From positions 9,671 to 73,670 of the forward strand of contig CAYXJO010000004.1 of NCBI GenBank assembly GCA_964465205.1: 64,000 nt of DNA, read 5' to 3'. This document shows positions 2,929-59,781 of this stretch, piece by piece. The notes below the pieces were generated by a model. That model was not told the DNA's origin. It did no database searches and saw only the letters and a list, made by a program, of their open reading frames with translations. The stretch is from an uncultured Gammaproteobacteria bacterium (GTDB lineage: Bacteria; Patescibacteriota; Patescibacteriia; Magasanikbacterales; GWA2-37-8). Numbering within the stretch: the first letter of the stretch is position 1; each line of letters begins with the position of its first letter. The translations under genes were made by a program, and so were the position numbers.

Positions 2929-2940
2929 TTGGTAAAATTA

Positions 2941-2973
2941 AAACACCCTCCGCTCGGAGGGTGTTTTTGTTTC
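2941..2973. terminator. Bidirectional intrinsic terminator between the convergent giant genes
   Basis: Hairpin CACCCTCC-GCTC-GGAGGGTG, with an A-run on the 5' side and TTTTTG on the 3' side. Confidence 0.6.
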
Positions 2974-2986
2974 GTGTATCAATATT

Positions 2987-5900
2987 CTATTTTCCACCAC
3001 CAGCTCGGACAACTTTTTTGGGAGCCGGAGCAGGGGTTGGTGCTGGTGCGGCTGTCTTCGCTTTTTGTTGTGAAGCAGGTTTGGTATCTGTTTTTGCATC
3101 CGGTTTGGCCACGGGTTTGGTGGTGGCTTTGGTAGCGGTCTTGGCTGTGGTCGCTTTCTTTTTTTCTGCCTGGGTTTCTTCCACAGTTAGTGCAGTTATC
3201 AAATCTTTTACAAAATTTCTTTTTTCGTCTACCAATTCATTAATCTCTTTAGCTTTAAATTTTGGGAACAGGCGAAAGATTATAGCTGCACTCATGGCAT
3301 CTTGTTCTGCGCCTGGAGTTGGTAATTTCTTTTCCGAATTTATCCACTCCACAATTTCGGCCACAAAATCCAACATAAAAGTTTTGTCCCATTTATCTTG
3401 GCTAATGCGATTTTCAATTATGGCGGATAATTTTTCGGCCATTTTTTCTTGGCCAGCCGGCGGTAAATTGGGGTGAGCCTCGGCTATGGCCTGCTGCATT
3501 TCTTTTTTAATCATTTTTTTGTCAGCCGGCAATAATTCCAAAGCCATGGCTGCTGCTAATTCTGGCGGCGGCGGGGGAGCATTTGGTGCTTCTGCGGCTG
3601 CGCCACCAGTATTTGGTGGATTGTGAGAAGGAATTTCTACTGCCGCTCCGGATTTGTCTGGTGGCGGGGGAGGATTGCCGGGAGAACCCTCGGGATTTGA
3701 CCCGGTCGGTTTTTTTTGCCCATCTTCTTCTTTTTTCATTTTATCTCCAGCTCCTGGTGGAGGAGTTTCGCCCTTGGGTGACTTTGGTGGTTTGTCACCA
3801 GATTTTTTGTCGTCTTTCTTTTTGTCTGGGTATTGTCCTGGTTCCAAAGGTTTGCGATCATTCATTGGCAATGGTATGAACCAAGGATTGTTTTCTGGTG
3901 GCGCGATAGAAATTTCGTCAACACCAATTTCGCGTGGGCGAAATACATAGTCGGTTATTTCTTTGGTTGCATTTGGCACTTCGCCACCTTTGCCTACCAT
4001 GGTAGCGAGTACATGAGCCTTGCCGTCCGAAGAAGAATTATAGACAATTTCCCAAGTCCAGCGAGCAGAACCGTCTTTGTTCATAAGAGTTTGACCCAAT
4101 GTGCCGGCTTTGTCTATAGCCAATTCACCGTTGGTCATCGGCACATCAAAACCATTGCCCGCATTAAAGTCGCCAGTAGTGGGGTCGTAAAAACGAATGT
4201 GGAAATTGCTGAAATCACCCTTGGCCAAATCCGCTTTCATGACATTGTACATGGTATCAATAGTGCCGTCGTAGTTTACTTTGCCATCACGCAACATATC
4301 GTTGATGCCTTTTTTGAAGCTGAATGTCCAATCTTTGCCACTGTCATTTAGCATGCCGCGCAATTCTTTGCCGTCGTGAATGTGACCGGAAGTTTTGAGT
4401 ACGGTACCAACATCGCGGTTTTCGTATTCGCAATGTATATGGCCGCTATTATCAGAGATATGTTCATGGCGATATACGTGGTGTAATGGTTCAATACGAT
4501 CCGGCACTTGATCAGGGCGTAGTTCACCTTTCATTACACTATCATGCAATCGCTCTCCTAATTTCAGTGCTTCGCCTGTTGTTCTGGGCGACAAATCCAT
4601 GTCATAATGATGCCCTGGCCCCATGGTATCGTGACTGGTAAGTTTGCCAGACCACGGATCCATGTTGTTGTGCCAAATACGCGGCGCGTTATTCATTTGG
4701 CCGCCTAATTTTTGTAATTCCGCGATTACAGCATCGTGGCCTTTGACAGTAATAGTGTGAGAAGTCATCCCCACATCCCAGCCAGCTTTGTCCATGAGTT
4801 GTATAGAATTCGGATTAATGGTAGCACCATCAGGATTGAGTTGAAAATTGCCCACGGTTTTATTATTTTCGTCGGTAATTAGCATTTCAAATCCGTTAGT
4901 CGGGGATTTGGGCGCAACATGCCAGCCGTGGGGAAGAGTGAATTTGGTATTGAGACCAGGCACTTGTACAGTATCTGGGGCCATGGCCGGACTAGCGACA
5001 TGTTCACCGGTTACTTCGGAGTGTAGATGATTACTTTCGAAAATTTTGAACCCTTTGTCACGCAATGCATCCAAGGTTTGTTGAGGCAAACCACCTTGGG
5101 GATCGGGTTTAATATGGTCCAAAATCACATTACCTTTTACATCCGCGAGTATATAAGTTCCAGTGGCTTTGTCTAGTCCTATTTTCAAGCTACTATCCAA
5201 CGCCATTTCAGTGTTGTTGGAAAGCAATACCCCCGGAGCGAAATTGGGTGGATAGCCAGCACCATCGGTTTTGAAATATTCGGTCATTTTGCCAATCCAA
5301 CTGTGATCGAAACTGTCGCGCATGGTGGTTACCGCACATTCGGCTACTGCACCAGCCGCGAAGCCTACTACCGCCCCCATTGCACCCGCTTTGACCATTT
5401 CTAAGCGTCGCCAGTTTTTGAAACGTGCATCAGTGTTTTCGATTTGAGTAGAAATATCGTCTATGGCTTTTTGGGTTTCGGCATGTAATACGTCAGGATT
5501 AATACCGTGTTGTTGTTCTATGCGTTTGAGTAGGATTTTAATTTGATTGATAGAAGCAATACGAGTATTTAGATTTTTGCCTTCTTCACGCGCGGCCGAG
5601 AATAAATCCACTTGCTTTTCAGATTCCACTGCCAAGGCGGCAAAAATTCTAGCTACATAAGCACGTTCTTCGGAATTAACTTGCCCAGCCGGCTGGCGTG
5701 ATAAATTATCCAAAAATGCCACCACTTCTTCGGTGTGTAGTTTGAGATAATCAAACTTGCGCATTTCTTTGGCTCGATCACCAACAGCTTCTTGACCCAG
5801 CGCCGAACGACGCATTTCCATGCCACGATCATATTCCACATCGCGTCCACGACGCAAAGCTCCCATTACACCACCCATTATTGAACCTACCACTGGTGCG

Positions 5901-8824
5901 GCTAGTAGTGCGCGCATCGACATGCTGGCAGCGCCTTTGGTTATGGCAGTGGCAGTGGCCGCCGCTCCGGCAGCCGCAAAGGTGATTGGGGAAGATAATA
6001 CTTTGCCCAGCACTGGTACACTTTGGGCTTTGTCCACCAATTTGGTAAACCAAGAACTTACAAACCGCGGTTTGGTTTCACGAATGTCGCGTTCTTTGAG
6101 GCCAAGTTGTATTTCCAAATTCATGATACCTTTCAAGTGGCCAAGAATAATTTCGCGATTTTCCGGTCCGTATTTTTTTTCCATTTCTTTGGTAGCATCC
6201 TCGACGTACTTTTTGTAACTTTCGGCCAATTGATAAAAATTATGTGCAAACAGCAAACCTTTGGCCTCTTCGTCGTTGGCATTGGTAAATTTGTAGCCTT
6301 TGCGTTTGATAATCGGCAATATTCTTTCTTCCACTGTGGCATCGAACAACTGGCGTGACATCAAATGCGCACCGCTAGCGTGATCGAAAATTAAATCAGC
6401 TAATTCAGCATTGACTTCGGCGTCGTTGATATATTCACCTTTTTCATTTTCTTCGGCCACTTCGGCGGCAAAGGTTTCTATGATATTATTCAGTACTTCA
6501 AAATGGCGAATTTCTTTGTCGCGGGTAATCGGTTTGCCTTCACTACGTGAAAGCAACGCCGCTTCGATTTCGGTCATGAGGTTTTTGTTTTTTTGGATTT
6601 CGTTTACTGATTCACGATAGAATTTATCCAAATATAATTTTTCACTCGGACGAATAAACATGGAGCTGCGCAATTGGCGCCCTACTTTTTTGGCGGTTTC
6701 CCATGGGTGGGTGACTGCCTCTTTGACACCATGGGCCAAACGACCAAAGAATCCGCGTTTGGGTTCTGGTGCCTGTGGTGGTTGAGCGTTGTTTGGATCA
6801 AGTCCGCGCATGTAGGCGTTGAGTTTTTCTTCGGCCTGCGACCAAGCCAAACGTTCTACTACTTTGGATACGTCGATAAGATACGCTCTGTTCGGCGGGC
6901 GAATTGGCTCTGGCTCTGGTATGCGGATCGGCTCTGGTTTGGGTTCTGGTGTTTCTGGTTTCGGTTCTTTTACTTTGTCATCATCTTCCGGCGGATTTTC
7001 CATAAAATTCAAATTTTCCGGTAAGACCGCCGTACTAATATTATCTTGTTCATCTTTGCCGAGTTTGCCATCTTCGCCTGGTTCATCTACACCCGGAACA
7101 CCTTTCTTTTTCTTGGGCAAAATTAATTCACGGCGTTTTTTGAGAGCACGTTCGGCCAGCAGCCAATTTTTCTCATCGTCACCGGTTTTGCGATGATCTT
7201 TGTGCACCAAGTATGCTTCGCGGCGTTTGCGCCACTCATCCCATTTATCGGTGGGTTCACTCGCGTTGGCATCAATTAATTTTATTACACTATCGATTTC
7301 TTTGGTGGCAGATTTGGTTTCGTCTTCAATTTTCGCGTCTAAATCCGCACTGTCCGCACCGGTGTCGGCTTTCATCTTGTCGAATTTTTGTTTGAGTTCA
7401 TCCACGGTTTGCTGGCGAATTTCTCTCAACGCTTCCAATAGATCGTCTACCGGAATACCTTCACGTCGGCAATTTTCGGAACCTTTGGATTCGCACACTT
7501 CGAATTTACCGTCATCAGTCTCGTCGCTTTCCAAATTTTCTTTGGCATCTTTCACAGCGGCTATTATCCACTTCAATCGTTCGGCGCCATCTGCTTTTTT
7601 ACCCATTTTATCCAAAGATTTTTTCAAAATACCCACCGCTTTGTCCACGGCTTGGAGTAATGATTCGCGCTCTGGCCCCTGCTCTTTGGCTTCGGCTTTG
7701 GCAGTTGGTTTGGCCTCTGGTTGAGGCATGTTTTCCGCCGCGTCATCTTGGGCGCTGGCATCCACCTTTTTTTTGTATTCGGCAATCATAGGTATTTTAC
7801 TTAAATATTTTTTATACATGTCAATATAATGGCCGCTCTTATCATCCGTGTTGCCATATCCACCAGCTTGGCTATCGTATTCGTAAGCCGGAGTGGTGAG
7901 ATCTTCCGCGCGAATCCAGTTTTCTTTGACGCCGTGCGAAGTCATCTTGGCTGCGTTGGATTCAATGCCGCCGATCCAGGCGCGCCCTTTTTTGTCGCGA
8001 CAAAAGACGTATGTTAAATTGTTATTTTTGGAAGGATAACATTCAAAGGTGATGGGCCCATACATTACCGATCCACCTTGCCAACTGTCGATCATTTTGC
8101 CAAAATCCGGTTCGTTGTTTTTGTCGTCGAAACCAATTTCACCTGGTGGTAATTTTTTCCCGTGGTTAGCCTTGGTCTCTTCGGGTGTGGCGGATTTGAC
8201 TTTAAAATTCCCGGGCAGATCTACAGGTTGAGAACTAACGTCGATTAGAAAAGAATGTCCTTTTTTGACAGCGTCATTATAGCGGGTGTCCAAATTGGCC
8301 GCTGTACCCATGAATACAAATTCAGCGTCGGGAATCGGTTTGATATTTTTATCATCCAAAGTCATTTCGGATAAAGCTTTTTGCATGGCGGCCGGCAACA
8401 TGATGGATTCTTCGCCGTATTCTTTGGAATACCAACCGGTGGCATAAGAGGCGAGTAGCCGCCACACGCCCTGAGAATTACTGCGCCAAAAAGAACGTGG
8501 CACCAAAGATCCACCTCGTTCGATAAATCCGGTTACCGCCGCGCGTCCACTACCGATATCGTATGGATGCGAAGATAGCCAGATATTTTGTCCACCCATT
8601 TCAATTTTATATTGGGGGAGGACGCCGTTTTTTTTGAAATCTTCCGGGGAAAGCATTTTGCCGTTATACTCGCTGGCACTGCCGGACAAGATAACTTTGT
8701 CCAGAAGTTTTTCGGCTTCGGTGTCGGGAACTTTTTCAATTTTAATTTTAAAACCAACTTGCGTAGGATTTTTCGCCTGATCTGGTGTTGAACGTTTAGT
8801 TTCGGCGTGGTTTTGTCCCGACAT
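2987..8824 (-). CDS. Giant 1945-aa multidomain protein with two Gly/Ala-rich TM hairpins, coiled-coil stretches, a His-rich region with a tandem SGHIH motif (M23-peptidase-like, uncertain), a poly-Pro linker and a Lys/Ala/Thr/Pro-rich C-terminal tail
   Basis: One uninterrupted minus-strand ORF. Hydrophobic Gly/Ala-rich segments encode VLGKVLSSPITFAAAGAAATATAITKGAASM (about nt 5830-5990) and MVKAGAMGAVVGFAAGAVAECAVTTM (about nt 5320-5400). The His-rich region at about nt 4380-4500 reads HHYDMD...SGHIHCEYENRD...SGHIHDGKE. A PPPPP run lies near nt 3600-3900. The C-terminal tail reads KKKATTAKTATKATTKPVAKPDAKTDTKPASQQKAKTAAPAPTPAPAPKK. Confidence 0.8.
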   Translation of the reverse strand: MSGQNHAETKRSTPDQAKNPTQVGFKIKIEKVPDTEAEKLLDKVILSGSASEYNGKMLSPEDFKKNGVLPQYKIEMGGQNIWLSSHPYDIGSGRAAVTGFIERGGSLVPRSFWRSNSQGVWRLLASYATGWYSKEYGEESIMLPAAMQKALSEMTLDDKNIKPIPDAEFVFMGTAANLDTRYNDAVKKGHSFLIDVSSQPVDLPGNFKVKSATPEETKANHGKKLPPGEIGFDDKNNEPDFGKMIDSWQGGSVMYGPITFECYPSKNNNLTYVFCRDKKGRAWIGGIESNAAKMTSHGVKENWIRAEDLTTPAYEYDSQAGGYGNTDDKSGHYIDMYKKYLSKIPMIAEYKKKVDASAQDDAAENMPQPEAKPTAKAEAKEQGPERESLLQAVDKAVGILKKSLDKMGKKADGAERLKWIIAAVKDAKENLESDETDDGKFEVCESKGSENCRREGIPVDDLLEALREIRQQTVDELKQKFDKMKADTGADSADLDAKIEDETKSATKEIDSVIKLIDANASEPTDKWDEWRKRREAYLVHKDHRKTGDDEKNWLLAERALKKRRELILPKKKKGVPGVDEPGEDGKLGKDEQDNISTAVLPENLNFMENPPEDDDKVKEPKPETPEPKPEPIRIPEPEPIRPPNRAYLIDVSKVVERLAWSQAEEKLNAYMRGLDPNNAQPPQAPEPKRGFFGRLAHGVKEAVTHPWETAKKVGRQLRSSMFIRPSEKLYLDKFYRESVNEIQKNKNLMTEIEAALLSRSEGKPITRDKEIRHFEVLNNIIETFAAEVAEENEKGEYINDAEVNAELADLIFDHASGAHLMSRQLFDATVEERILPIIKRKGYKFTNANDEEAKGLLFAHNFYQLAESYKKYVEDATKEMEKKYGPENREIILGHLKGIMNLEIQLGLKERDIRETKPRFVSSWFTKLVDKAQSVPVLGKVLSSPITFAAAGAAATATAITKGAASMSMRALLAAPVVGSIMGGVMGALRRGRDVEYDRGMEMRRSALGQEAVGDRAKEMRKFDYLKLHTEEVVAFLDNLSRQPAGQVNSEERAYVARIFAALAVESEKQVDLFSAAREEGKNLNTRIASINQIKILLKRIEQQHGINPDVLHAETQKAIDDISTQIENTDARFKNWRRLEMVKAGAMGAVVGFAAGAVAECAVTTMRDSFDHSWIGKMTEYFKTDGAGYPPNFAPGVLLSNNTEMALDSSLKIGLDKATGTYILADVKGNVILDHIKPDPQGGLPQQTLDALRDKGFKIFESNHLHSEVTGEHVASPAMAPDTVQVPGLNTKFTLPHGWHVAPKSPTNGFEMLITDENNKTVGNFQLNPDGATINPNSIQLMDKAGWDVGMTSHTITVKGHDAVIAELQKLGGQMNNAPRIWHNNMDPWSGKLTSHDTMGPGHHYDMDLSPRTTGEALKLGERLHDSVMKGELRPDQVPDRIEPLHHVYRHEHISDNSGHIHCEYENRDVGTVLKTSGHIHDGKELRGMLNDSGKDWTFSFKKGINDMLRDGKVNYDGTIDTMYNVMKADLAKGDFSNFHIRFYDPTTGDFNAGNGFDVPMTNGELAIDKAGTLGQTLMNKDGSARWTWEIVYNSSSDGKAHVLATMVGKGGEVPNATKEITDYVFRPREIGVDEISIAPPENNPWFIPLPMNDRKPLEPGQYPDKKKDDKKSGDKPPKSPKGETPPPGAGDKMKKEEDGQKKPTGSNPEGSPGNPPPPPDKSGAAVEIPSHNPPNTGGAAAEAPNAPPPPPELAAAMALELLPADKKMIKKEMQQAIAEAHPNLPPAGQEKMAEKLSAIIENRISQDKWDKTFMLDFVAEIVEWINSEKKLPTPGAEQDAMSAAIIFRLFPKFKAKEINELVDEKRNFVKDLITALTVEETQAEKKKATTAKTATKATTKPVAKPDAKTDTKPASQQKAKTAAPAPTPAPAPKKVVRAGGGK

Positions 8825-8849: not shown

Positions 8850-9182
8850 TTATTCTTTTTTGGCACCGCCTACATATATAGAGCGGAACTCCATCATGGC
8901 GCGAGCGGTGACTTCGGGTAAATTGGGTATGTTAGCGATAAAAAAGTTGTGAACTGCTTCTTGGCCCGGGTTGGACTGCATGAGGGCGTCGAATAGCTCG
9001 GCGCTGTCATTGGGCAGGGCCTGGAGCAGGGAAGTCATAATATGATTCTGCATGCGACCGTATAAATCTTGCTTCATGGCGGCTTTGAGGTCGGCATTTA
9101 CCTCGGCACCGTGGGCTTCTTCGATTATTTTGTTCAAAAACAGATCGATTTCGGCGGGCATTTCCGGGGCTGAGTTGGGCAT
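8850..9182 (-). CDS. Hypothetical 110-aa protein sitting immediately upstream of the giant gene, likely co-transcribed with it
   Basis: ORF with host-like codon usage and a 25-nt gap to the start of the giant gene. No recognisable domain. Confidence 0.5.
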   Translation of the reverse strand: MPNSAPEMPAEIDLFLNKIIEEAHGAEVNADLKAAMKQDLYGRMQNHIMTSLLQALPNDSAELFDALMQSNPGQEAVHNFFIANIPNLPEVTARAMMEFRSIYVGGAKKE

Positions 9183-9667
9183 ATTATATATATAATGTAT
9201 AAAGCCAGCGTGGGCTGGTCCGCCGGGTGGCGGATTGTTTATACTTTATCGTATCACAAAATCCGCTTTTTTTCAAATTTGGCATAAAATGAATTTTGGC
9301 TAATATTAGCTAAATACGGCGGGGATGTGGATAACTTTATGTTCACCCCCTTGACAAAAGTCCAAAATCGTGATATAGTATTCTGTTATGAAATAATCGA
9401 GCAGCTTTTGAGAGAGGAGCAGCCCGATTGTGTCACTGAATACCCTCTCGCCCAAAGAGGTTTTTTGTTAAGTAATGGTTTACCTATCAGTTCGTTACAA
9501 TCTAGTAGTGAAGACTCTGGCACAAAGTTGTATATATCATATATATGGTAATCAGCTTTGTGCTAGAGTGTAGAATGTCCAGTGCGCGGAATAATCCGTA
9601 GCGCTTGGCAAAGATGTCCCCAAGGCGTGCCGCACAGCGGCCCAATTGAACCAAAAAGGAGCCTACC

Positions 9668-10513
9668 ATGTCCGACAAGAACCAGACCCCCGAAAACGGA
9701 ACCGAAACCAACCAGACCCCCGAAATCCCCAAGGACAAGAAGGAGAATCCCATGCCCGAACCGAAGAAGACCCTGCCCCAGAAGTTCGACTACAACACCG
9801 GCCGCGAGCCCAAACATGCCGACGGCAGCAACCACGGCGCGCTGTGGTTCGTCGCCATCGCGGCGCTCGTGCTCGCCATCGGCGGCCTGGCGCTCGGAAG
9901 CGTGAACTACAGCGACATCGGCGGCTTGACGACCCTCATCAAGGGCCACAGCACCGACATCGCCAACTTGGTCAAAGAGAACGACGCCCGCAAAGCCGAG
10001 AACGACGACATGTATCTCAACCACGTCATGCCGGCCGAGGACGCCATCAGCGGCCTCAAGGTTCGCATGAACACCGCCGAAGGCACCATCAACGCCCACG
10101 GCAAGGCCATCACGGACGCCGAGAAGAACATCGTGTGGCTCACCGGCCAGAACAAGAAGGTCAACAAGGCGCTCTCGGAAAATGCCGAAACCGTCAAGAA
10201 TCAGGGCAAGACCATCGGTCAGTACGGCCAGAATTTCGAAAAGGTCAACGGCACGCTCGTCAAGCACGACGACCGCCTCGACTCGCTCGAAAAACGCCCC
10301 ATGACCAACAAGGCCAATCCCTTGTCCACCGGCGGCCCCACGGTCCTGTGGTGCGCGGGCAGCCTGAACAACCGGTTCGGCTGTCTGAACGACAAGCCCG
10401 TCGAGAAAGAGGTCGACGCGATCAAGCTCGCCTGCGGACCCGGCGGCTCGAAGAACGTCGCGAAGTTCGAAAACGGAACTTACGGCGATTTCGCCCCGGT
10501 CAACTGCAACTAG
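9668..10513 (+). CDS. Membrane-anchored coiled-coil protein (281 aa) with a single N-terminal TM helix and a 4-Cys C-terminal domain. First gene of the GC-rich island.
   Basis: AAGGAG RBS 8 nt upstream of the ATG. TM segment ALWFVAIAALVLAIGGLALGSV. Heptad-like region rich in K/E/N. Cys residues in the last 60 aa. GC is about 62%. Confidence 0.7.
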   Translation: MSDKNQTPENGTETNQTPEIPKDKKENPMPEPKKTLPQKFDYNTGREPKHADGSNHGALWFVAIAALVLAIGGLALGSVNYSDIGGLTTLIKGHSTDIANLVKENDARKAENDDMYLNHVMPAEDAISGLKVRMNTAEGTINAHGKAITDAEKNIVWLTGQNKKVNKALSENAETVKNQGKTIGQYGQNFEKVNGTLVKHDDRLDSLEKRPMTNKANPLSTGGPTVLWCAGSLNNRFGCLNDKPVEKEVDAIKLACGPGGSKNVAKFENGTYGDFAPVNCN

Positions 10514-10777
10514 GCCACCTCACTACTACACATGCTCTTTCGGCGTGGGACCCTCCGGGGTTCCACGCCACTCTTACATTGTTTATGATAGTCCCTTTTT
10601 AGGGACATATCATAGACAGCGTAGGAGTTAAGTCCTTTACATTTTAGAAGTCGTTAAGACCTTTCTGAGAGTTCCTGGTACAAAGAGAGGAACTATTTTA
10701 GTTTCTGTCTCTGTACCATGAACTTATTACCCACGATGTTCGTCACTTTCCTGCCGCAATGGCAAAGGAGGCTCGCA

Positions 10778-11401
10778 ATGAAACACCTATCCCTGTCTTT
10801 GGCGTTTATCGCCGCCCTGCTCATCTTCGGTTCCTTGGCCAACGCCTCGGAAGCCGACAACCCGCCCGTTGGTTGGCAGAACATTCCTCAGCTCCCGGAA
10901 AACAAGGAAGCCTGCAAGCTCGTCCCGGCCCTCACCCTCTTCGGAGGCGGCGGCTATGTGACCGGCGTCGAGAATCGCGGCAAACAACACGGCGAAGGCT
11001 TCGGTCTGGCCGTGGGATCGCTCGCGTTCAGCTTCCGCGCCACCCAGCACTTCATCGTCACTCCGCAACTTGACTTCGGTCTGGGCGGAGCGAAGAATGG
11101 TCGCTGGACCAGCTCGCTTGGCGTTCTGTTCGGAGGCCGTACGTATGGCGACGGGTTTCGTTTGTCCGCCGGGTTTTCCTGGGTGACTTACAACAACCTG
11201 GCCATCAAGGACGGCGGCTGGTGGTTGAACGGCGTGGGATTCCCCGTCAAGATGGACTTTAAACCGTGGGACAACAAGTACCCGGTTTTCTTCTCCATCA
11301 TGGCGACCCCGTTCGTCGGTATCAACCGCGGCAAGCACACCGGCGGCGGCCTGGAATTCCTGGGCGCTGGCATCGGCGGCGACTTGCCCTCGCCATTCTG
11401 A
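10778..11401 (+). CDS. Secreted OMP-like small beta-barrel protein (208 aa, C-terminal Phe)
   Basis: AGGAGG RBS and a signal peptide MKHLSLSLAFIAALLIFGSLANA with an A-N-A cleavage site. Gly/aromatic-rich amphipathic strands. The protein ends ...DLPSPF. The ORF-track start at 10718 is an upstream in-frame extension. Confidence 0.5.
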   Translation: MKHLSLSLAFIAALLIFGSLANASEADNPPVGWQNIPQLPENKEACKLVPALTLFGGGGYVTGVENRGKQHGEGFGLAVGSLAFSFRATQHFIVTPQLDFGLGGAKNGRWTSSLGVLFGGRTYGDGFRLSAGFSWVTYNNLAIKDGGWWLNGVGFPVKMDFKPWDNKYPVFFSIMATPFVGINRGKHTGGGLEFLGAGIGGDLPSPF

Positions 11402-11421
11402 TCTCAACGACTTCTCAACCC

Positions 11422-11460
11422 AGGTGGGCCGAGCTTCAGCTCGGTCCCACCCATTTTTAG
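11422..11460 (+). terminator. Intrinsic terminator after the OMP-like gene
   Basis: Hairpin GTGGGCCGAGC-TTCA-GCTCGGTCCCAC followed by CCATTTTT. Confidence 0.6.
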
Positions 11461-11681
11461 TGGTCACAATGATTTGTGAATACTAAAAAAGACATAAATT
11501 TATTTGTGTCTTGAGTTCATTAAAATTCGGATTAGAAAAACAAACACTTGGTACAAAGTTGATTGTCTCTTTGGTAATTAGCTTTGTGCCAAGTGATAAA
11601 TTCGGCGAGGTACAAAGCGTAGTGCTTTGTCCGCCGGTGAAAATTGAAAGCGTGTTCTCTACCACAAAGGAGTTTGAAGCC

Positions 11682-13145
11682 ATGAAACACACGATGCTGC
11701 TGGTTCTGATTGCCCTGATCGCGGCCCTGTTCACCATCGGTTGTTCGGCGGCGGGCGAAGACGCCCCCCAGAACATCATCGACGGCGACTCGACCGTGGA
11801 CGGCGACACCAACGAGGCCACCGAGGCCGACGGCGACTCCCAGGCCGAAGACGGGGATACCACGGAAGCGACCGAAGAGGAAAGCGAAAGCGAAACCTCG
11901 GACGGCGACTCGACCGTGGACGGCGACTCGAACGAAGGCGAACAGCCCGAGACCGAAGAAGCCGACACCGACACCACCCCCTACATCTGCCCCGGCACGA
12001 AGTTCGTGACCGGGCCGGCCGTGACCTGGCTGCAGAGCTGGGCCACCGGCGAGGAAAATCCCATCGACGCCGCCGGCACGTCTTGCACGTGTCCGGAAAG
12101 CGGCTGCGGACAGCAGCCCTGCGCGTGGTTGAACCCGCCGCGGAACTCGCGCATCACCACCTCGAACGGCACCTGCACCACCGAAGGCGACGACATCACC
12201 CTGTGCTACTACATGTCGCCGAGCCCGTCTCAGGAAACGTATGCGCCTTTCGTTACCCCCCAGGGTACGAAAGTCTGCACGCATGACGGACTTTACAGCG
12301 GCGCCCACGTCGAAGTCGACGGCGACACCGATACGGTGCTCCCCGACGGCGACTCGAACGAAGGCGAAGAAGAGGTGGACAACACCGAGACCGCCGACGG
12401 GGACATCGTTCCCGACGGGGACTCGGATACCACCGAGGCCGAACAAGAAGCCGACACGGAAGTCCCGGTGAACGAATGCCTGAGCAATGCGAATTGCGAC
12501 GACGGCCAAGCGTGCACCTATGACGAGTGCGTGTTTCTCACTTCGGGCAACCGCTGCGTTCGTTCGAACGAGGCCAACGGATCGCATTGCGACCCTGGCG
12601 TCAGCTTCGACGACGGATACTGCTACGAGGGTTCCTGCCACGGTTTCAACAACTGCGAGTCGAACCTCGACTGCCCCATGATTGACAACTGCAACTCGCA
12701 GCTCTGCATCATGGGCGAGTGTTACCCCAGCGAATCGGCGCCCCGTCCGGGCATTACCTGCGACGACGACAACCCCGATACCTACAGCGACGTTTGCAAC
12801 AGCAACGGCGTCTGCGAGGGAACTCCCAACGGGCAACAGACCGGTTTCGGGACTTGGGCCCTGCTGTTCGGCATGACCAATTGCCCCTCCTGGACGGTCG
12901 GCATCGACCATACCGGCAATGAGTCCGGCCCGAATGCTGAACACCAGGAAGACAGCGTCTGCTATTCCCGCACTGTGGGCGACAATCAAGCCCATTCGAT
13001 CTGGGGCCACATTGACCCCTGGGGTACGCAGCCTCCGGCCGGAATGAAGGTGCTCTGCACCACAAAGTACGGTACCCAATATTGGACCCCATGGGTTCAG
13101 GGTAACGGCGGCTGGTGGTTCGTCTGTTCCAACGACGGCCACTAA
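11682..13145 (+). CDS. Acidic Cys-rich secreted lipoprotein (487 aa), paralog of the next gene
   Basis: AGGAG RBS. Lipoprotein signal MKHTMLLVLIALIAALFTIGC (lipobox TIGC). The segment after the lipobox Cys is a DGD/TE/EA acidic low-complexity linker. The C-terminal half has many Cys in CxDG.xC patterns. The ORF-track start at 11511 is an in-frame upstream extension through the leader. Confidence 0.75.
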   Translation: MKHTMLLVLIALIAALFTIGCSAAGEDAPQNIIDGDSTVDGDTNEATEADGDSQAEDGDTTEATEEESESETSDGDSTVDGDSNEGEQPETEEADTDTTPYICPGTKFVTGPAVTWLQSWATGEENPIDAAGTSCTCPESGCGQQPCAWLNPPRNSRITTSNGTCTTEGDDITLCYYMSPSPSQETYAPFVTPQGTKVCTHDGLYSGAHVEVDGDTDTVLPDGDSNEGEEEVDNTETADGDIVPDGDSDTTEAEQEADTEVPVNECLSNANCDDGQACTYDECVFLTSGNRCVRSNEANGSHCDPGVSFDDGYCYEGSCHGFNNCESNLDCPMIDNCNSQLCIMGECYPSESAPRPGITCDDDNPDTYSDVCNSNGVCEGTPNGQQTGFGTWALLFGMTNCPSWTVGIDHTGNESGPNAEHQEDSVCYSRTVGDNQAHSIWGHIDPWGTQPPAGMKVLCTTKYGTQYWTPWVQGNGGWWFVCSNDGH

Positions 13146-13493
13146 ACCACCCCACCCGCACGGCGGGCTAATCCGATCACATAACCTAGGGCGGCAGGCT
13201 TCGGCTTGCCCCCTAGGCCTTTTACTTGAGATCATTATTCGTAGTGCTCTCAAGAAAAAGTTGTTTACCAACTATAGAAATTTCCTTACCTGCGGGCGCT
13301 TGTCCTTGTGCGTGAGGTTCGGGAGATTTTTGTGGTGGATAGGCAACTATCCAACATGATCCACTGTGTCTCTCTCCCAGTGGATTTTTGTTTCAACGGA
13401 GAGTTGCCCTTTGAAAATTGAGGATTAGAAAAACAACAACACACACGTCCACGTCTCGTTCCCATCTTTGCATGAAGAAAGGAGAAAATTCTC

Positions 13494-16400
13494 ATGCACC
13501 ACACGTCCCTTTCCCAAAAGTTACTTTTTGTGCTCTCGGTCTTGGCATTTCTCGTGATTGCTGGCTGTGGGAGCACCACCGTTACTACTGACGCCAATGA
13601 CGGCGACATGGAAGCGGTGGAATTGGACAATTCCGATGGGGACGAACCCATCAATGACGGCGACATCGAAAAAACGGAAGCCGAAGCCGACCAGGCCGAA
13701 GCGGAAGAAGATTCGACGGAAGCCGACACCGACACCGACGGCGACACGGAAGTTGAAAATTGCCAGAACTGGTACCCGGTTACCCCGCAGGTTGCTTTTT
13801 GCGATCTATTGGAGGAAGACCTCGGCCGCTTGGAGCGGATTTGCTACCAAGAGCAGCCGTCGCGACGCGAATGCTCGACCACCAAGGTCGGCGCGATCGG
13901 TTTCCAGTGCTCTATGGGAGCTACCTTCGTCATTTGCTATGACACGAATGGCGCGCCGGTTACCCCGGTCGTCTGTATCGTGAATGGCGAACGGACGCCG
14001 GCGATGGATAGCATCGCGGACACGGGTTTCCCGGGTTGCGACTATACCGTCATGCCGGTGGACGGCGACGAAGAGGAAGGCGAAAGCGAAGGCGAGACTG
14101 AAGAAGTCGAACCGGCCGACGGCGACACGGAAGTTTTGCCTGACGGCGACACCGAAGAGGTGCTCCCCGATGGCGATACGACCGAACAGCCCGAGGCCGA
14201 AGCTGAGGCGGACAACACCGAAGCCGTCGACGGGGACATTATTCCCGACGGCGACTCGGATATCACCGAGATCGACTCTGACCCCGAGTTGCCCCCGGTT
14301 TGCGAACCGGCGTGCGTGAGCGACGATCCTTGCAAACAGGCGGTGTGCGTCAATGGCACCTGCTTGTACGATTTGCTCACGGGCCTCGCCTGCGACGACG
14401 GCAACGCCTGCACGCGCGTGGATACGTGCTTGCTGGGCGAGTGCATCGGCGGCGACGAAGTCGTGTGTCAGGCCCTGGACCAGTGCCATTTGGTGGGGGA
14501 ATGTAACCCCGCCACCGGCACCTGCACCAGCCCGGCCGCAAACGACGGCACGCCCTGCAACGACGTGAGTCTCTGCACCACCCTCGACACCTGTTTGTCC
14601 GGCGTGTGCGGCGGCGCCGCCGTCGTGTGCAATGATAACAACGGTTGCACGAACGACTCGTGCGACCCGGAGCACGGCTGCGCGTTCGAACCAAATCTCA
14701 ACGCTTGCGACGATCACAACGCTTGCACCACGGGCGACATCTGTTCGAACGGCGGCTGCAGCGGCACGACCATCTCCTGCGACGATCTCAACCCCTGCAC
14801 CGACGACTCGTGCGACGCCGTTCTCGGCTGTCGCCATGTGCCCAACACCGCGTCCTGCGACGATGGCAATTGGTGCACGGTCGGCGACGTGTGCGGAGGC
14901 GGCACCTGCCACTCCGGCGCCACGCGCGACTGTTCAACCTTTGACTCGCAGTGCTCTAAAGGCATCTGCGACGAAGCCAACGATCAGTGCGTCAGCGATC
15001 CGCGTCCCCTCGAAGGGAAGTTGTGCGACGCCGACGCCAACGGCTGCACCAAAGACGATTACTGCCACGCGGGCGACTGCGTGAAGGGTACCGTCGTGGA
15101 CTGCACCGGGCAGAACGACCAGTGCAATACTGGCGTCTGCTATTCGACCGGCAACAATTCGTCCGTCTGCCTCAAGGACCCGACGCCGAAGCAGGGTAAC
15201 ATCTGCGACGACGGGGCCTATTGCACCATGGGGGAAACTTGCAACAACGGGGAGTGCATGAACGGCACCGCCCGCAATTGCACCGTTTTCACCGATCAAT
15301 GCAACGTGGGTACGTGCGACGAAACGCACGACACCTGCGTTCCTGTGGCCGTGGTAAACGGAACGGTCTGCAACGACGACAGCCTCTGCACCCAGAGCGA
15401 CACATGTCAATTTGGGATTTGCAAAGGCGATAACCCCGTCGTGTGTGGAGCACAGGACCAGTGCCATTTCGTGGGCACTTGTAACCCGTCCACCGGGACG
15501 TGTTCGAATCCGGTCAAACCGGACAACACGACCTGCGATGACGGTTCGCTGTGCACCAAGGAAGACAAGTGTACGGCCGGCACCTGCGGAGGCAGCACCG
15601 TTTTGTGCGACGACAACAATGTTTGCACGGACGACGTCTGTTTGCCTAAGGCCGGATGTCTGCACGCCAACAACTTCAACCCCTGCGACGACGGCAACGC
15701 CTGTACGCAGGGCGACATGTGCGGATACGGTCGATGCGAGGGCGAAGCGGTCGTCTGCGATGATGGCAACGTCTGCACGGACGACTATTGCGACATCGCC
15801 GCCGGCTGCAAAGCGGCTTTAAACGCCGCCCCTTGCGACGACAGCAACGCCTGCACCCAGGTTGACACCTGCTTGCTCGGTCAGTGCGTCGGGGGCAACC
15901 CTAAGACGTGCCCGGCCGAAGACGAATGCACCTATGCCGGCATCTGCGAACCGTCGGACGGGTTGTGTCGTGTTCAGTTCAAGCCTGAAGGTCTGCGTTG
16001 CAACGATAACGACAGTTGTACCGTCGGCGAGTACTGCGCTCTCGGTGTGTGCGGCGATGGCATTAGCCCCTGTGGCAGCCAGCACTGTCAGCCGATGAGT
16101 CCGAGCGGATACTACTGCTCGGAGTGTTGGAACGACGGCGATTGTCAGAGTGGATTCGCGTGCCTGCATCACGTTTGCGTCGATACCGCATGCGACGATG
16201 ACAATGCCTGTACGGTCGATACATTCAATCCGGTTATGGGTTGTCGCCACGATCAACGCACCTGCGACGACGGCAACGCCTGCACGTTCGACTTCTGCGA
16301 CACCATCGCCGGCTGCAAAACATTCCCGCTTTCGGGGATCGCGTGTAGCTCGGCCGATCCGAACGTGTGCAATGTGTATAAATGCAGCGCCGGGTCGTGC

Positions 16401-17069
16401 GATTACGATCACATGAAGAATTGCACGGACTACGACCGCACCACGGCCGATTCGTGCAACCCAACCACTGGCGAATGCATATACGACCCCATCCCCACCG
16501 ACGGCGACAGCGACGGCGATACCGAAACTGAAGCCGAGATTGATATAACCGACGGCGACCTCGACACCGAGAACGACACCGAAGAAACGCCGGCGTGCAT
16601 CCCGGCCAACTGCGACGACCAAAACCCCTATACGACGGATATTTGCGAGGCCGGCAACTGCCGCCACGTGGATAATCTCGCGCGGGCCTTTGTAATGCAG
16701 TTGCCGATTAACACCCAGATCACCAACGTGATCTTGTGGCCCACTGCGGGCACCGGCTATATCCATGACTACGTCGTCGCCACCGAATTACCAAAGGTTG
16801 ACACCAACGGCGACAGCGTGGTGGATTCGTACGAACTGGATATCTTGGCCGAGTTCTTGGCCGGACGTATCACGGAGCTGCCCGGTTCCGCCCAGGTGAT
16901 CTACCCGGGGTGGGACGGCGACGGCTTCCCGTGTTCGCCGCCTACGCCTACCGGCATCTGTCTGCTCAGCGACGGCACCACCGTTCAGCTGGTCTGGATG
17001 GCGGGCGGTCGTAACGCCCTTGGATGCCCATGGGACGGAGCGGTCGGATTCCCGATCGTTTGTCACTAA
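13494..17069 (+). CDS. Giant acidic lipoprotein (1191 aa) made of about 20 tandem 38-42-aa Cys-rich repeats (C[DN]DGNACT.[DG]D.C..G.C). These resemble the Myxococcus-type cysteine-rich repeat. A C-terminal dockerin/EF-hand-like loop reads DTNGDSVVDSYELD.
   Basis: RBS GAAAGGAG. Lipobox IAGC in MHHTSLSQKLLFVLSVLAFLVIAGC. Acidic DGDTE linkers. The linker DNTEAVDGDIIPDGDSDITE is nearly identical to DNTETADGDIVPDGDSDTTE in the upstream paralog. GC3 is very high. Confidence 0.8.
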   Translation: MHHTSLSQKLLFVLSVLAFLVIAGCGSTTVTTDANDGDMEAVELDNSDGDEPINDGDIEKTEAEADQAEAEEDSTEADTDTDGDTEVENCQNWYPVTPQVAFCDLLEEDLGRLERICYQEQPSRRECSTTKVGAIGFQCSMGATFVICYDTNGAPVTPVVCIVNGERTPAMDSIADTGFPGCDYTVMPVDGDEEEGESEGETEEVEPADGDTEVLPDGDTEEVLPDGDTTEQPEAEAEADNTEAVDGDIIPDGDSDITEIDSDPELPPVCEPACVSDDPCKQAVCVNGTCLYDLLTGLACDDGNACTRVDTCLLGECIGGDEVVCQALDQCHLVGECNPATGTCTSPAANDGTPCNDVSLCTTLDTCLSGVCGGAAVVCNDNNGCTNDSCDPEHGCAFEPNLNACDDHNACTTGDICSNGGCSGTTISCDDLNPCTDDSCDAVLGCRHVPNTASCDDGNWCTVGDVCGGGTCHSGATRDCSTFDSQCSKGICDEANDQCVSDPRPLEGKLCDADANGCTKDDYCHAGDCVKGTVVDCTGQNDQCNTGVCYSTGNNSSVCLKDPTPKQGNICDDGAYCTMGETCNNGECMNGTARNCTVFTDQCNVGTCDETHDTCVPVAVVNGTVCNDDSLCTQSDTCQFGICKGDNPVVCGAQDQCHFVGTCNPSTGTCSNPVKPDNTTCDDGSLCTKEDKCTAGTCGGSTVLCDDNNVCTDDVCLPKAGCLHANNFNPCDDGNACTQGDMCGYGRCEGEAVVCDDGNVCTDDYCDIAAGCKAALNAAPCDDSNACTQVDTCLLGQCVGGNPKTCPAEDECTYAGICEPSDGLCRVQFKPEGLRCNDNDSCTVGEYCALGVCGDGISPCGSQHCQPMSPSGYYCSECWNDGDCQSGFACLHHVCVDTACDDDNACTVDTFNPVMGCRHDQRTCDDGNACTFDFCDTIAGCKTFPLSGIACSSADPNVCNVYKCSAGSCDYDHMKNCTDYDRTTADSCNPTTGECIYDPIPTDGDSDGDTETEAEIDITDGDLDTENDTEETPACIPANCDDQNPYTTDICEAGNCRHVDNLARAFVMQLPINTQITNVILWPTAGTGYIHDYVVATELPKVDTNGDSVVDSYELDILAEFLAGRITELPGSAQVIYPGWDGDGFPCSPPTPTGICLLSDGTTVQLVWMAGGRNALGCPWDGAVGFPIVCH

Positions 17070-17078
17070 TCCTCAACG

Positions 17079-17140
17079 CCCCCTAGGGGGCACAACCGGC
17101 TCGGGGGGGGGAGAAATCTCCCCCCGGCCAAATATTTTTC
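17079..17140 (+). terminator. GC-rich palindromes and terminator at the end of the island
   Basis: Perfect palindrome CCCCCTAGGGGG, followed by hairpin GGGGGGGGAGAAATCTCCCCCC and a T-run. Confidence 0.5.
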
Positions 17141-17267
17141 TATCAATCAAATGCTTGAATACAAAAATTATTCAAACATCCGATTGGCAGATTAATTTCC
17201 GCCAAAACAAAAATTCCACCTTTTTCTCTCTCTAGGTGGATTTTTGTTTTCAAAAACAAATAAAAAA

Positions 17268-17382
17268 ATAGCCGTATAGATATTGGTTTTCGCCAGCGGC
17301 CATCGCACCCCGCCGTGCGGGGCGTAGCGCCGACAATCCGGCGCAAGTCTGGCCGCCAGAAAACTAATATCTATACGGCTAT
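17268..17382. repeat. GC-rich palindromic structured element, copy 1 (115 bp)
   Basis: An about 80-nt GC-rich core contains internal hairpins CCCCGC-CGT-GCGGGG and GCGCCG-ACAATC-CGGCGC. It is flanked by a perfect 17-bp AT-rich inverted repeat ATAGCCGTATAGATATT / AATATCTATACGGCTAT. Confidence 0.6.
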
Positions 17383-17389
17383 TATAATT

Positions 17390-18787
17390 TTAGGATGTTG
17401 TTTTTGAACTCCAAAAACCCCACATCGTCCAGATCCACCATATCACCGGCGTATGATGCAACATATTATCTGACACACTCAGTGCCAAATACACAAGAAT
17501 CGAAGAGATGAACACAATATTTGTCCAACTACTATTCCACCCGATTTTTAATTGTGTCAAAAATAGCGTCAAGTAAATAGTGACAAATAACAGTAATCCG
17601 ATAATGCCAGTCTCGAACCCTACTTTAAGATAATCATTGTGCGCTTCTGAGGTATTATCCCAAATATTTTTAACCGGTTTATTATCATCCCACACTTTGG
17701 CAAAAGCGCCATACCCATAGCCAATTATAGGGTGCTCGAAATATAGTGGTAATACTTTGTTGGCTACATCGGCGCGCCACTGAATGGAGTCGGCTTCTTG
17801 ATTACGAGTGGTCAAACGCGCGATTAGTGAATTGGACTGCAAATTAATATTGAATTCGTCTGTCAAAAAATTATTTACCGGATAAAACAAAATATAGAAT
17901 ACTCCCACCGACAGAGCCAGCTCTATTAGTAGTTTTGGCCGATAAATAATCCCAAGGATTATTAAAAATATCAGTAATCCTAGCCAGGCAATACGAGTAT
18001 AAGTAAAGGCCACTATGAGTGCCAATAATATCAGCGCTACAATTAATATGTTCTGTTTTTGAACAAAAATTTTGTTCACCCATGAATCGCTGATTTGGAA
18101 AAGTGGGCGATTGTGCAAGTGTACAAGATATCTATCGGCTATGGCCATAAAAATTAGCAAGGCAAAGGTGGCCATGATGTTGGGGTGAGCGAATGTACCA
18201 TAGATTCTGTTGGGCGTACCGTCGATAGTCATACCGGAATGGGTAATAAACTGGAAAATAGCCACGGTGATAGGTACTATGGCCGAAGAGAATAATGCCC
18301 AGTGTAGCCAGTGACCGTATTTATCTTTGTTTTTTTGATACAAAACGAAAGAAATACCAAATAGTGCAAATAAGTCGAGCGCCTTTACTGTTTCTATAAT
18401 AGTAGTGCTTTTATCGTGGCTCCAAACAAAACTAATCAAACACCAGGCGCAAAAACATATCCATAATTTTTTGAGTGGGATTTTATGCCAGTATTCCGAG
18501 TTTTTGAGAAAGAAGTAAGCAGACCACACCAAAAGAATGCCGGCCAGAGCCGCGTTGATGTTGATATGAATATTTTCATAAGAAAAAATCATCACATCTC
18601 GCCATTGATCGATCGCTGGTCGCGCCACGAGTAGTATCAAGACAGTGTATTCTTTGAAGGTGGCGTGCAAAAGCAAGAACAATAATGCCAAAAAGGCCAG
18701 TATATTAATATTGGTGATTGGGTTGAAGATGATAGTGAGGGTGAATAGTACGGCGAGCCAAGCTATCCCCGGCATTTTCATTTGCAT
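17390..18787 (-). CDS. O-antigen ligase/polymerase family (Wzy_C-like) polytopic membrane protein
   Basis: More than 10 predicted TM helices. Motifs FAHPNIMATF and AHNDYLKVGFETGIIGLLLF are typical of WaaL/O-antigen ligase periplasmic loops. Confidence 0.65.
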   Translation of the reverse strand: MQMKMPGIAWLAVLFTLTIIFNPITNINILAFLALLFLLLHATFKEYTVLILLVARPAIDQWRDVMIFSYENIHININAALAGILLVWSAYFFLKNSEYWHKIPLKKLWICFCAWCLISFVWSHDKSTTIIETVKALDLFALFGISFVLYQKNKDKYGHWLHWALFSSAIVPITVAIFQFITHSGMTIDGTPNRIYGTFAHPNIMATFALLIFMAIADRYLVHLHNRPLFQISDSWVNKIFVQKQNILIVALILLALIVAFTYTRIAWLGLLIFLIILGIIYRPKLLIELALSVGVFYILFYPVNNFLTDEFNINLQSNSLIARLTTRNQEADSIQWRADVANKVLPLYFEHPIIGYGYGAFAKVWDDNKPVKNIWDNTSEAHNDYLKVGFETGIIGLLLFVTIYLTLFLTQLKIGWNSSWTNIVFISSILVYLALSVSDNMLHHTPVIWWIWTMWGFWSSKTTS

Positions 18788-18843: not shown

Positions 18844-18954
18844 GTGGTATGGATATTTAATTTTCTGGCGGCCAGACTTGCACCGGATCGTTGGCGCTAC
18901 GTCCCGCGCGGCGGGATGCGATGGCCGCTGGCGAAAATCAAATATCCATACCAC
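18844..18954. repeat. GC-rich palindromic structured element, copy 2 (111 bp), in inverted orientation to copy 1
   Basis: The core is the reverse complement of the copy-1 core with 6 substitutions, of which at least two pairs are compensatory within stems. Its flanks form a different perfect 15-bp inverted repeat GTGGTATGGATATTT / AAATATCCATACCAC. Confidence 0.6.
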
Positions 18955-59280: not shown

Positions 59281-59781
59281 ATGAGAAAAGCTCTGTGTCT
59301 TTTGATAGGGATGGTTATTCTGGGCACCATCGGTTGCGCTGCCAGCACCAACGAACCGTCTTACGCGGAAAAAGTCTTGGGGGGCACCCACGAACTGCGA
59401 AAGATGGTGGAACGGCAGGGTAGTCAGACCACTACTTCCAGCAGCTTCTTCTTGGTCGTAGGCAGTATGACCCAGACTCAAACTGCCGAAACCCTGATCA
59501 AATTCTCCTGGAAGATGAATGACGGCACCTACGCTATTTCATCTCTGCCTCTGGAGAAAATTCGCGTTCGGATCGACGAAACCGCAACGTCGCCTACCGC
59601 TCAGTTTCGCTGGCGGCCGTGGCGCGGCGGTTGCCTGTGCCGCACTGCGATCCCAGAACTTCAGACGCTAATGGACAACAACGTTGTTTACATGCTTCTG
59701 AACGTGAGATCGGCCGATTGGCCGGTACAGGTCAGCCTTCCGCTCAACGAAAACAAGGCGGAATTCATCCCGTCAAAGTAA
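59281..59781 (+). CDS. Lipoprotein (166 aa) in a GC-rich islet
   Basis: Lipobox LGTIGC in MRKALCLLIGMVILGTIGCAAS. RBS GAGG. GC is about 55%. Confidence 0.6.
   Translation: MRKALCLLIGMVILGTIGCAASTNEPSYAEKVLGGTHELRKMVERQGSQTTTSSSFFLVVGSMTQTQTAETLIKFSWKMNDGTYAISSLPLEKIRVRIDETATSPTAQFRWRPWRGGCLCRTAIPELQTLMDNNVVYMLLNVRSADWPVQVSLPLNENKAEFIPSK

Follow-up and report, generated by a model that had tools for sequence, protein, structure and literature searches.

A conserved GC3-rich gene island of Magasanikbacteria encodes two acidic, cysteine-rich predicted lipoproteins

The stretch of DNA analysed here, which we call the window, comprises 64,000 nucleotides (nt) of contig CAYXJO010000004.1 (assembly GCA_964465205.1, positions 9,671 to 73,670), deposited as an uncultured Gammaproteobacteria bacterium and placed by GTDB in the Magasanikbacterales of the Patescibacteriota. 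It contains an island of four plus-strand genes (9668-17069), referred to as G1, G2, A and B, whose G+C content at third codon positions (GC3) is 0.76-0.89, against 0.34-0.48 in the 18 other large window genes measured. Genes A (11682-13145, 487 amino acids (aa)) and B (13494-17069, 1191 aa) encode secreted, cysteine-rich lipoproteins of the Dicty_CTDC family, the latter with a modular hairpin rod, and are members of a conserved, fast-evolving, GC3-rich envelope cluster. A first-pass annotation of this DNA, made from the letters alone, had proposed two lipobox genes at these positions and had called such proteins unexpected in a reduced, low-GC genome; the two plus-strand open reading frames (ORFs) and the compositional contrast support it on both counts.

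The ORF list begins gene A at TTG 11511. We set its start at ATG 11682 because a Shine–Dalgarno (SD) sequence, AAAGGAG, lies 7 nt upstream and because the ortholog P0121 begins at the same place. Lipoproteins were predicted with a sequence rule only, in the style of PS51257, requiring a hydrophobic region and then a lipobox with its cysteine at position 15-35. Both proteins pass it: the signal sequence of A (11682-11744) ends in FTIGC with Cys21, and that of B (13494-13568), which has SD GAAAGGAG upstream and is modelled by AlphaFold2 (AF2) as a helix over residues 6-22, ends in VIAGC with Cys25. By the same rule the lipobox is kept in the orthologs P0121 (as VLTGC), L034_B, L036_B, L003 and L005.

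Beyond the anchor the two proteins are collinear in architecture. In A, a DGD-rich, low-complexity acidic tether (11745-11975) leads to an N-terminal globular domain with eight cysteines (11976-12317), 48% identical to that of P0121 and without detectable homology to the N-terminal domain of B. A second acidic tether (12318-12467), about four divergent four-cysteine modules (12468-12821) and a C-terminal domain with four cysteines (12822-13142) follow, the last of these common to P0121 and the cysteine-rich lipoproteins of loci L007, L011 and L013. In B, acidic tether 1 (13569-13757) precedes an eight-cysteine N-terminal globular domain (13758-14057), which is 46% identical to that of the L034 ortholog and is also present in the L038 ortholog; then come tether 2 (14058-14297), a rod of about 27 four-cysteine β-hairpin modules (14298-16493), tether 3 with one further module (16494-16673) and a C-terminal tip domain with four cysteines (16674-17066). 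This tip is an orphan: a word-index search of 5.8e9 proteins returned no homolog, and only L038 showed a relative, at 27% in BLASTP across the last, C-terminal third. Cysteine makes up 10.7% of the residues of B (127 in total), with one in the lipobox, eight in the N-terminal domain, 114 between residues 270 and 1056 and four in the C-terminal domain; the 29 of A divide as 1 + 8 + 16 + 4. The mature proteins carry net charges of -80 (A) and -177 (B) and contain 10 and 15 DGD motifs, respectively, in agreement with the DGD-rich acidic segments of the first-pass annotation, whose description of surface-exposed lipoproteins made of cysteine-rich repeats is likewise supported at the level of sequence.

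The repeat unit of B is a four-cysteine module of 24-31 aa, with about 28 modules between residues 270 and 1056. Direct-repeat families over 14390-16430 have start-to-start spacings of 72, 78 and 150 nt. This is the periodic self-similarity anticipated for B, but not the predicted count of some 20 units of 38-42 aa, a length equal to one and a half modules. Modules of three types, a, b and c, build super-repeats of about 50 aa and larger, and in an alignment of 40 homologs with B, CDDGNACTxxDxCxxGxCxG modules alternate with CxDxNxCTxDxCDPxxGC to give the ~50-aa super-repeat. Tandem Repeats Finder does not detect the modules because the copies are too diverged; the array is therefore not a recent amplification.

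Family assignment came from Pfam, where B matches PF00526 (Dicty_CTDC) in seven stretches with E 1.8e-18 and 66.4 bits against a gathering cutoff of 27, and where the syntenic orthologs in L003, L011 and L007 match the same family (E 5e-25 to 3e-67). Gene A has no Pfam match, and a word-index homology search with it found nothing; it is linked to Dicty_CTDC solely through BLASTP to the repeats of B (36% identity, E 7e-13). More than 3200 database proteins match these repeats, the best of them 35-45% identical and in the repeat region only, and a metagenome scan aimed at close relatives of B yielded nothing but repeat proteins of other organisms (30-43% identical). The named sources among the database matches are Myxococcales, Polyangiaceae, Deltaproteobacteria and Binatia, so that relatives do lie mainly in Myxococcota-like, GC-rich bacteria, as had been suggested. 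The family proposed at the time does not hold: hidden Markov models (HMMs) of the Myxococcus cysteine-rich repeat (TIGR02232 / PF13948), of dockerins and of EF-hands have no match to A or B at E<=1 in Pfam and NCBIfam. PF13948 is part of the Pfam set behind the precomputed domain annotations, in which it is listed for P0075 and P0082. The Myxococcus repeat (DUF4215) resembles that of B in being cysteine-rich, in its CDDGN-like motifs and in occurring in the same broad group of GC-rich bacteria, and some homologs of B, P0075 and P0082, carry both families; the period of 24-31 aa nevertheless differs from the 38-42 aa of the unit first described. The dockerin or EF-hand-like loop, DTNGDSVVDSYEL at residues 1103-1115 of the tip domain, falls away as well: it occurs once in B, fails PROSITE PS00018 at position 6 (Ser), and lies in a 14-aa segment that is a gap in the closest B ortholog (L038).

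With the 40 homologs as input, AF2 models residues 273-855 and 884-1000 of B with a predicted local distance difference test score (pLDDT) of 80-90 and one β-hairpin per module; the tethers, predicted to be disordered, and the N- and C-terminal domains all stay below 50. A Foldseek search of this model against the PDB ranks the heavy chain of the Entamoeba Gal/GalNAc lectin, a surface adhesin, as best, with four structures (E 6e-6 to 6e-3) and low template-modelling scores; the top match has E 6e-6 and probability 0.89. Searches of PDB sequences with A and B gave nothing. The cysteine-rich part of the lectin heavy chain consists of small disulfide-linked β-hairpin modules that form an elongated, rigid arm (PMC12948311), and long runs of such modules of ~20-30 residues are what B, according to its model, would share with it. 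Judged from the model, this likeness is one of construction only.

Members of Dicty_CTDC share with B the tandem ~24-aa four-cysteine modules, with the signature C-D-D-x-N-x-C-T-x-D-x-C and the same alternating a/b consensus seen across the 40 homologs. Besides Dictyostelium prestalk and extracellular-matrix proteins, the family takes in large bacterial proteins by the thousand, uncharacterised and mostly from Myxococcota-like genomes; its top bacterial matches are larger proteins (~1100-2100 aa), often with other known domains, and in the literature we found no bacterial member with a studied function. What sets A and B apart from these relatives is their lipobox anchor, their polyanionic DGD tethers, their lineage-specific end domains and their GC-rich codons inside the AT-rich genome of a member of the candidate phyla radiation (CPR), whereas in the other loci inspected the gene matches its flanks. 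In ten other metagenome loci, one of them at 44% GC, Dicty_CTDC genes have the composition of their surroundings; because they track their own genome, the amino-acid content of the family does not force a high GC.

The relation between A and B is not that of whole-length paralogs. Across their tethers 2 the DNA is 83% identical between 12359-12442 and 14192-14275 and 84% between 12318-12362 and 14142-14186; the tract thus spans 12318-12442 in A and 14142-14275 in B. The nearly identical linker of the first-pass annotation accordingly exists, at a lower identity than claimed. The recent duplication deduced from it does not follow. The end domains have no detectable homology, either by BLAST or by profile-profile comparison with their orthologs included (probabilities 0.2%, 0.6% and 1.4%), and separate orthologs of A and B stand in the same order in L034, L036 and L038. 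At identical residues, moreover, the window genes and their L034 and L038 orthologs use the same codon about as often as chance, and any duplication of A and B must therefore be old. Only the ~125-nt tract looks recent; since it is absent from the A ortholog, local gene conversion between the two genes is its likely cause, and from their sequences we regard A and B as mosaics.

The composition of the island is confined to its coding DNA. The five island spacers have 41-47% GC, like other spacers of the window, and every gene has its own AAAGGAG SD and hairpins downstream. Codon usage is distinct: TGC, GAC, TTC, AAC and ATC each supply 76-81% of their codon families, GAA is still preferred, unlike in typical high-GC genomes, and four-fold sites carry 50-73% C and 21-32% G. 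Many island proteins have a K/(K+R) ratio of 0.5-1.0, Lys-rich as in AT-rich genomes; in a comparison genome of uniformly 63.5% GC that encodes a similar protein with a lipobox and a DGD tether, most non-ribosomal proteins have ~0.3-0.4. Intermediate GC3 is found in a DUF5663 gene (8850-9182, 0.60) and in a gene at 59281-59781 on the plus strand (0.65), the product of which is a predicted lipoprotein with the signal MRKALCLLIGMVILGTIGC followed by AAS and no Pfam family.

The same arrangement recurs in diverged relatives. The neighbouring radical SAM (rSAM), GT1 and GHL15 genes match metagenome-assembled genomes (MAGs) of Magasanikbacteria, rSAM with 58-63% identity to Candidatus Magasanikbacteria relatives, and in L001, L003, L004, L007, L011, L012 and L013 matches to the cysteine repeat lie beside Wzy or upstream of rSAM, mostly in GC-rich stretches. 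Stretches of 64-73% GC occupy this site in L002, L005 and L018 without a B-type match. The recurrent gene order is a coiled-coil protein with a Zn-ribbon or other N-terminus and a transmembrane (TM) helix, a β-rich protein with a signal peptide, a cysteine-rich lipobox lipoprotein, Wzy (minus strand) and rSAM (plus strand). Island genes in these loci have GC3 0.70-0.86 and their neighbours mostly 0.3-0.5, with spacers of 39-55% GC in L003, L007, L011 and L012. Isolate names place the assemblies in several different studies, and identity among their rSAM proteins is 60-87%; finding one GC3-rich cluster in independently assembled, diverged MAGs leads us to discount both a chimera and a recent single transfer. 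We found no literature on cysteine-rich proteins or GC heterogeneity in Magasanikbacteria.

Closer relatives show how fast these genes evolve. A full HMMER scan of 1.84e9 representatives identified one true relative of A, P0121 (E 5.5e-33), and its contigs L034, L035, L036 and L038, groundwater metagenome contigs of which one is labelled ANAN16-1, carry orthologs of G2, A and B together with Wzy; the syntenic locus is complete in L038. Between the window and L038, Wzy has 75% protein and 73% DNA identity, as against 32-44% protein identity for G2, A and B (30% in one pairwise comparison of G2). The orthologs, for all their near-chance codon sharing, stay GC3-rich (0.64-0.80), and the compositional anomaly of the island is maintained, not residual. 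L034 and L038 are 95% identical over 2.8 kb, yet their B orthologs differ by a 672-nt versus a 177-nt segment of the array, the L034 one lying at 2148-4220 and the L038 one at 3052-5298; in L038 a stop and a gap of 198 nt divide the gene. This difference in the array could be a strain-level change in module number through module gain or loss, a pseudogene, or the collapse of repeats in assembly.

The window DNA best conserved in L038 is in the spacers: 13216-13419 (88%), 17112-17250 (87%), 11484-11535 (87%) and 10536-10727 (76%). The first of these contains a strongly structured noncoding element between A and B (13219-13413, plus strand, 195 nt), which retains 88% nucleotide identity to L034, L036 and L038 over ~207 nt while the flanking genes keep only 38-47% protein identity to their counterparts. 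Its minimum free energy is -77.8 kcal/mol (z = -8.7 on the plus and -3.1 on the minus strand). RNAalifold with L034 gives 68 pairs, with three compensatory double changes, five GU-compatible single changes and none broken, and the element terminates in a terminator-like hairpin ~100 nt upstream of the B start codon. It could be a small RNA, or a 5' leader or attenuator of B. A second element, downstream of B (17112-17250, plus strand), is 87% identical to L038 5346-5480 and consists of a central hairpin and then a terminator-like one (41 pairs and three compensatory changes in RNAalifold); the terminator hairpin resembles the one at 13355-13395. Rfam holds no family for the island spacers at the gathering threshold or E<=1, and a covariance model of the A/B element finds no further copies in 360 kb of Magasanikbacteria loci, confining it to this sub-lineage.

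Genes G1 and G2 complete the island. G1 (9668-10513, plus strand, GC3 0.89) has a K/E/P-rich N-terminus, one TM helix, a coiled-coil ectodomain and a cysteine-containing C-terminus; its family matches are weak and of coiled-coil type only, and analogues with a Zn-ribbon or other N-terminus, a TM helix and a coiled coil hold the same position in L001, L003 and L011. G2 (10778-11401, plus strand, GC3 0.78) is a secreted Gly-rich, all-β protein that ends in Phe, with the signal peptide MKHLSLSLAFIAALLIFGSLANA followed by SE. Its start is taken as ATG 10778 and not the listed 10718 because the SD supports the former. No Pfam family matches it; its L038 ortholog, 30% identical, has YDF at the C-terminus, and similar secreted Gly-rich proteins with a terminal aromatic F lie in L003 (2633-3331) and L038 (347-1048). 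Single-sequence AF2 yields a low-confidence meander of ~10 β-strands (pLDDT 48). The strands of this model are long and antiparallel and resemble an outer-membrane β-barrel, which would be odd for a lineage thought to be without an outer membrane.

The genes that flank the island in the window are cell-wall and glycan genes (Wzy, rSAM, GT1, GHL15, Mur ligases and MraY), in addition to the DUF5663 gene. Directly upstream of the island lie two ORFs of ordinary composition and no Pfam family, 25-2928 (plus strand, 967 aa) and 2987-8824 (minus strand, 1945 aa); L007, L011 and L012 likewise have large proteins of no recognisable similarity ahead of the island. In L005 (~1031-3230) and L002 (1-925), both from Magasanikbacteria-like MAGs, the site beside Wzy is taken by GC-rich genes with a different cysteine repeat, CNGxDDDCDxxxDE, which resembles the metal-binding motif of the MopE type; an exchange of different cysteine-rich cassettes at this site is suggested by their presence. 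Further GC3-rich genes (0.69-0.94) occur in L003 (14609-15148), L007 (14397-15284), L012 (14307-15158), L002 (6424-7311 and 8726-9598) and L018 (43-1185), so that the GC3-rich class reaches beyond the island; most encode TM and coiled-coil proteins, and the L002 pair looks cytoplasmic.

Several short DNA features accompany these genes. The motif GGTAATYAGCTTTGTGC lies upstream of G1 and A (9547-9563 and 11573-11589) and forms an inverted repeat with GGYACAAAGTTG, and GGATTAGAAAAACAA lies upstream of A and B (11529-11543 and 13422-13436); GGTAATYAGCTTTGTGC and GGATTAGAAAAACAA are shared by regions upstream of island genes and by no others. At 11484-11535, a 53-nt block that includes the palindrome GACAYAAATTTATTTGTGTC shows 87% conservation in L034 and L038. 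Upstream of G1, the segment 9351-9460 (plus strand) has a near-consensus sigma-70-type promoter (TTGACA, 17 nt, TATAGT, with TG) and, ~65 nt on, a terminator-like hairpin, and could mark a small RNA or leader. Past B, a ~105-nt element at 17274-17376, with a 25-nt inverted repeat (17267-17291 / 17359-17383), has an inverted second copy at 18847-18951 (88.6% identical). The two copies bracket Wzy and on that account look like a miniature inverted-repeat transposable element. The rSAM ORF as listed starts with a GTG that the second copy overlaps; alignments of rSAM with its homologs begin only near residue 40, which probably puts the true start close to 18967.

How the island came by its composition has several possible answers. 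Acquisition from a GC-rich donor of the Myxococcota type, too recent to have ameliorated, would explain a GC3 so far above the ~0.42 of the genome and the named relatives of the B repeats, and a protein in which a DGD tether follows a lipobox does occur in the uniformly GC-rich comparison genome. We nevertheless consider a recent arrival improbable. The cluster sits at the same site in Magasanikbacteria as diverged as their rSAM proteins indicate; orthologs that share codons at chance level are all still GC3-rich; the spacers are conserved and have a host-like composition; the borders carry neither an integrase gene nor a tRNA gene, and a repeat scan of 9100-17450 found no direct repeats there; and no close donor is seen, the best matches being limited to the repeats. 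A prophage or plasmid origin was dropped because phage and plasmid collections returned no matches. An ancient transfer is possible as the ultimate origin. The abrupt compositional change might also betray an assembly chimera or a binning contaminant, which we find barely conceivable: a single contig has CPR genes on both flanks, each island gene is separated from the next by a host-like spacer, and several MAGs and metagenome contigs of different studies show the same arrangement in independent assemblies. The AT-rich spacers are at odds with regional mutation bias and with biased gene conversion, and continual exchange with GC-rich host DNA is possible, although no close donor sequence supports it. 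Translational selection, under which four very highly expressed envelope genes would prefer C-ending codons, accords with the preference for NNC codons, the retained preference for GAA, the excess of C at four-fold sites, the strong SD on all four genes and the restriction of the GC elevation to coding DNA. It appears unlikely all the same: ClpB and other housekeeping genes of the window have GC3 0.36-0.47, an indirect objection, and codon usage in the ribosomal proteins of Patescibacteria is reported to predict low expression for GC-rich genes (2026 preprint, 10.64898/2026.06.21.733656).

As to what A and B do, they might form a polyanionic, cation-binding coat or matrix, a hydrated brush or a layer loaded with Ca or Mg, instead of acting as ligand-specific adhesins. 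Their extreme charge and DGD content would suit such a role, as would a repeat family named after slime-mould (Dictyostelium) matrix proteins and neighbours, G1 and G2, that look like envelope structural proteins, and no adhesive domain was recognised. An anchor with a long rod and a distinct tip, in contrast, is typical of projecting proteins, very fast evolution and strain-level changes in module number are not expected of a bulk matrix, and no recognised Ca-binding family matches; a coat seems to us a rather unlikely, though serious, alternative. The combination originally put forward, Myxococcus-type repeats with a dockerin or EF-hand Ca module and a recent duplication, can point to real CDDGN motifs, to one EF-hand-like loop and to the tether tract shared by A and B. 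It is largely refuted and very improbable in view of the HMM results, the shorter period, the loop that fails its pattern and is deleted in an ortholog, the separate orthologs of A and B and the unrelated-looking end domains.

We regard it as probable that A and B are lipid-anchored, very acidic, disulfide-rich surface proteins, B being fibrillar and adhesin-like, encoded in an old, vertically inherited cluster in which a high GC3 is maintained. Cys25 of B would be lipid-modified and keep the protein at the membrane's outer face; outward from it would follow a disordered polyanionic DGD tether, the eight-cysteine domain, the second tether, the rod of ~28 modules, stapled by disulfides, and the lineage-specific tip with its four cysteines. 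The rod would act as a stalk that projects the tip away from the cell, and A would be a short version, with ~4 modules and different end domains. What defines bacterial fibrillar adhesins is an anchor, a stalk made of repeats and a domain at the tip. They resemble B in their membrane anchor, long repeat stalk, distinct terminal domain, rapid evolution and variation in repeat number, and B differs from them in that its stalk consists of cysteine-rich hairpins and not of Ig-like or similar domains, that it has a lipobox instead of an LPXTG or autotransporter anchor, and that it contains no known adhesive domain. B may be the means by which the cell makes contact with a host or a surface; diversifying selection with module gain and loss may keep altering it, and a force on synonymous sites would hold the island at GC3 ~0.8 within a genome at ~0.4. 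Expression may be controlled through the conserved AT-rich spacers, one of which, the structured RNA candidate, lies just upstream of B.

Some observations weigh against this interpretation. Lipid anchoring of A and B is predicted from a pattern in the sequence, and of the two only A also has a K/R within its first seven residues (K2), a PS51257-type criterion, the first K of B being at position 9. Neither lgt nor lspA was identified among the window ORFs scanned. If all 126 cysteines of B outside the lipobox were paired, the resulting 63 disulfides would require an extracytoplasmic oxidation system. Finally, no adhesive or binding domain was recognised in A or B, and their tips match no family, lack relatives beyond the lineage and are given no confident fold by AF2.

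More broadly, and more tentatively, Magasanikbacteria and perhaps other Patescibacteria might keep a small class of fast-evolving envelope genes at a GC-rich, host-like codon usage by selection on synonymous sites, with conserved structured RNA leaders controlling them, in which case the contrast would be functional and not a leftover of transfer. Lipoproteins, TM coiled-coil proteins and β-rich secreted proteins would be examples of this class, and the contrast could serve to adjust how disulfide-rich surface fibrils are translated or exported, or allow the genes to recombine continually with DNA from the host; the general codon usage of Patescibacteria has been reported to be 'complementary' to that of GC-rich hosts. 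The island poses, in a clean natural setting, the question of what maintains the composition of synonymous sites in bacteria, be it selection, biased conversion or continual exchange with hosts, and upstream of B the locus adds a candidate structured RNA. CPR bacteria are thought to live attached to their hosts through contact molecules that are largely unknown, and the island provides a concrete candidate for such an interface.

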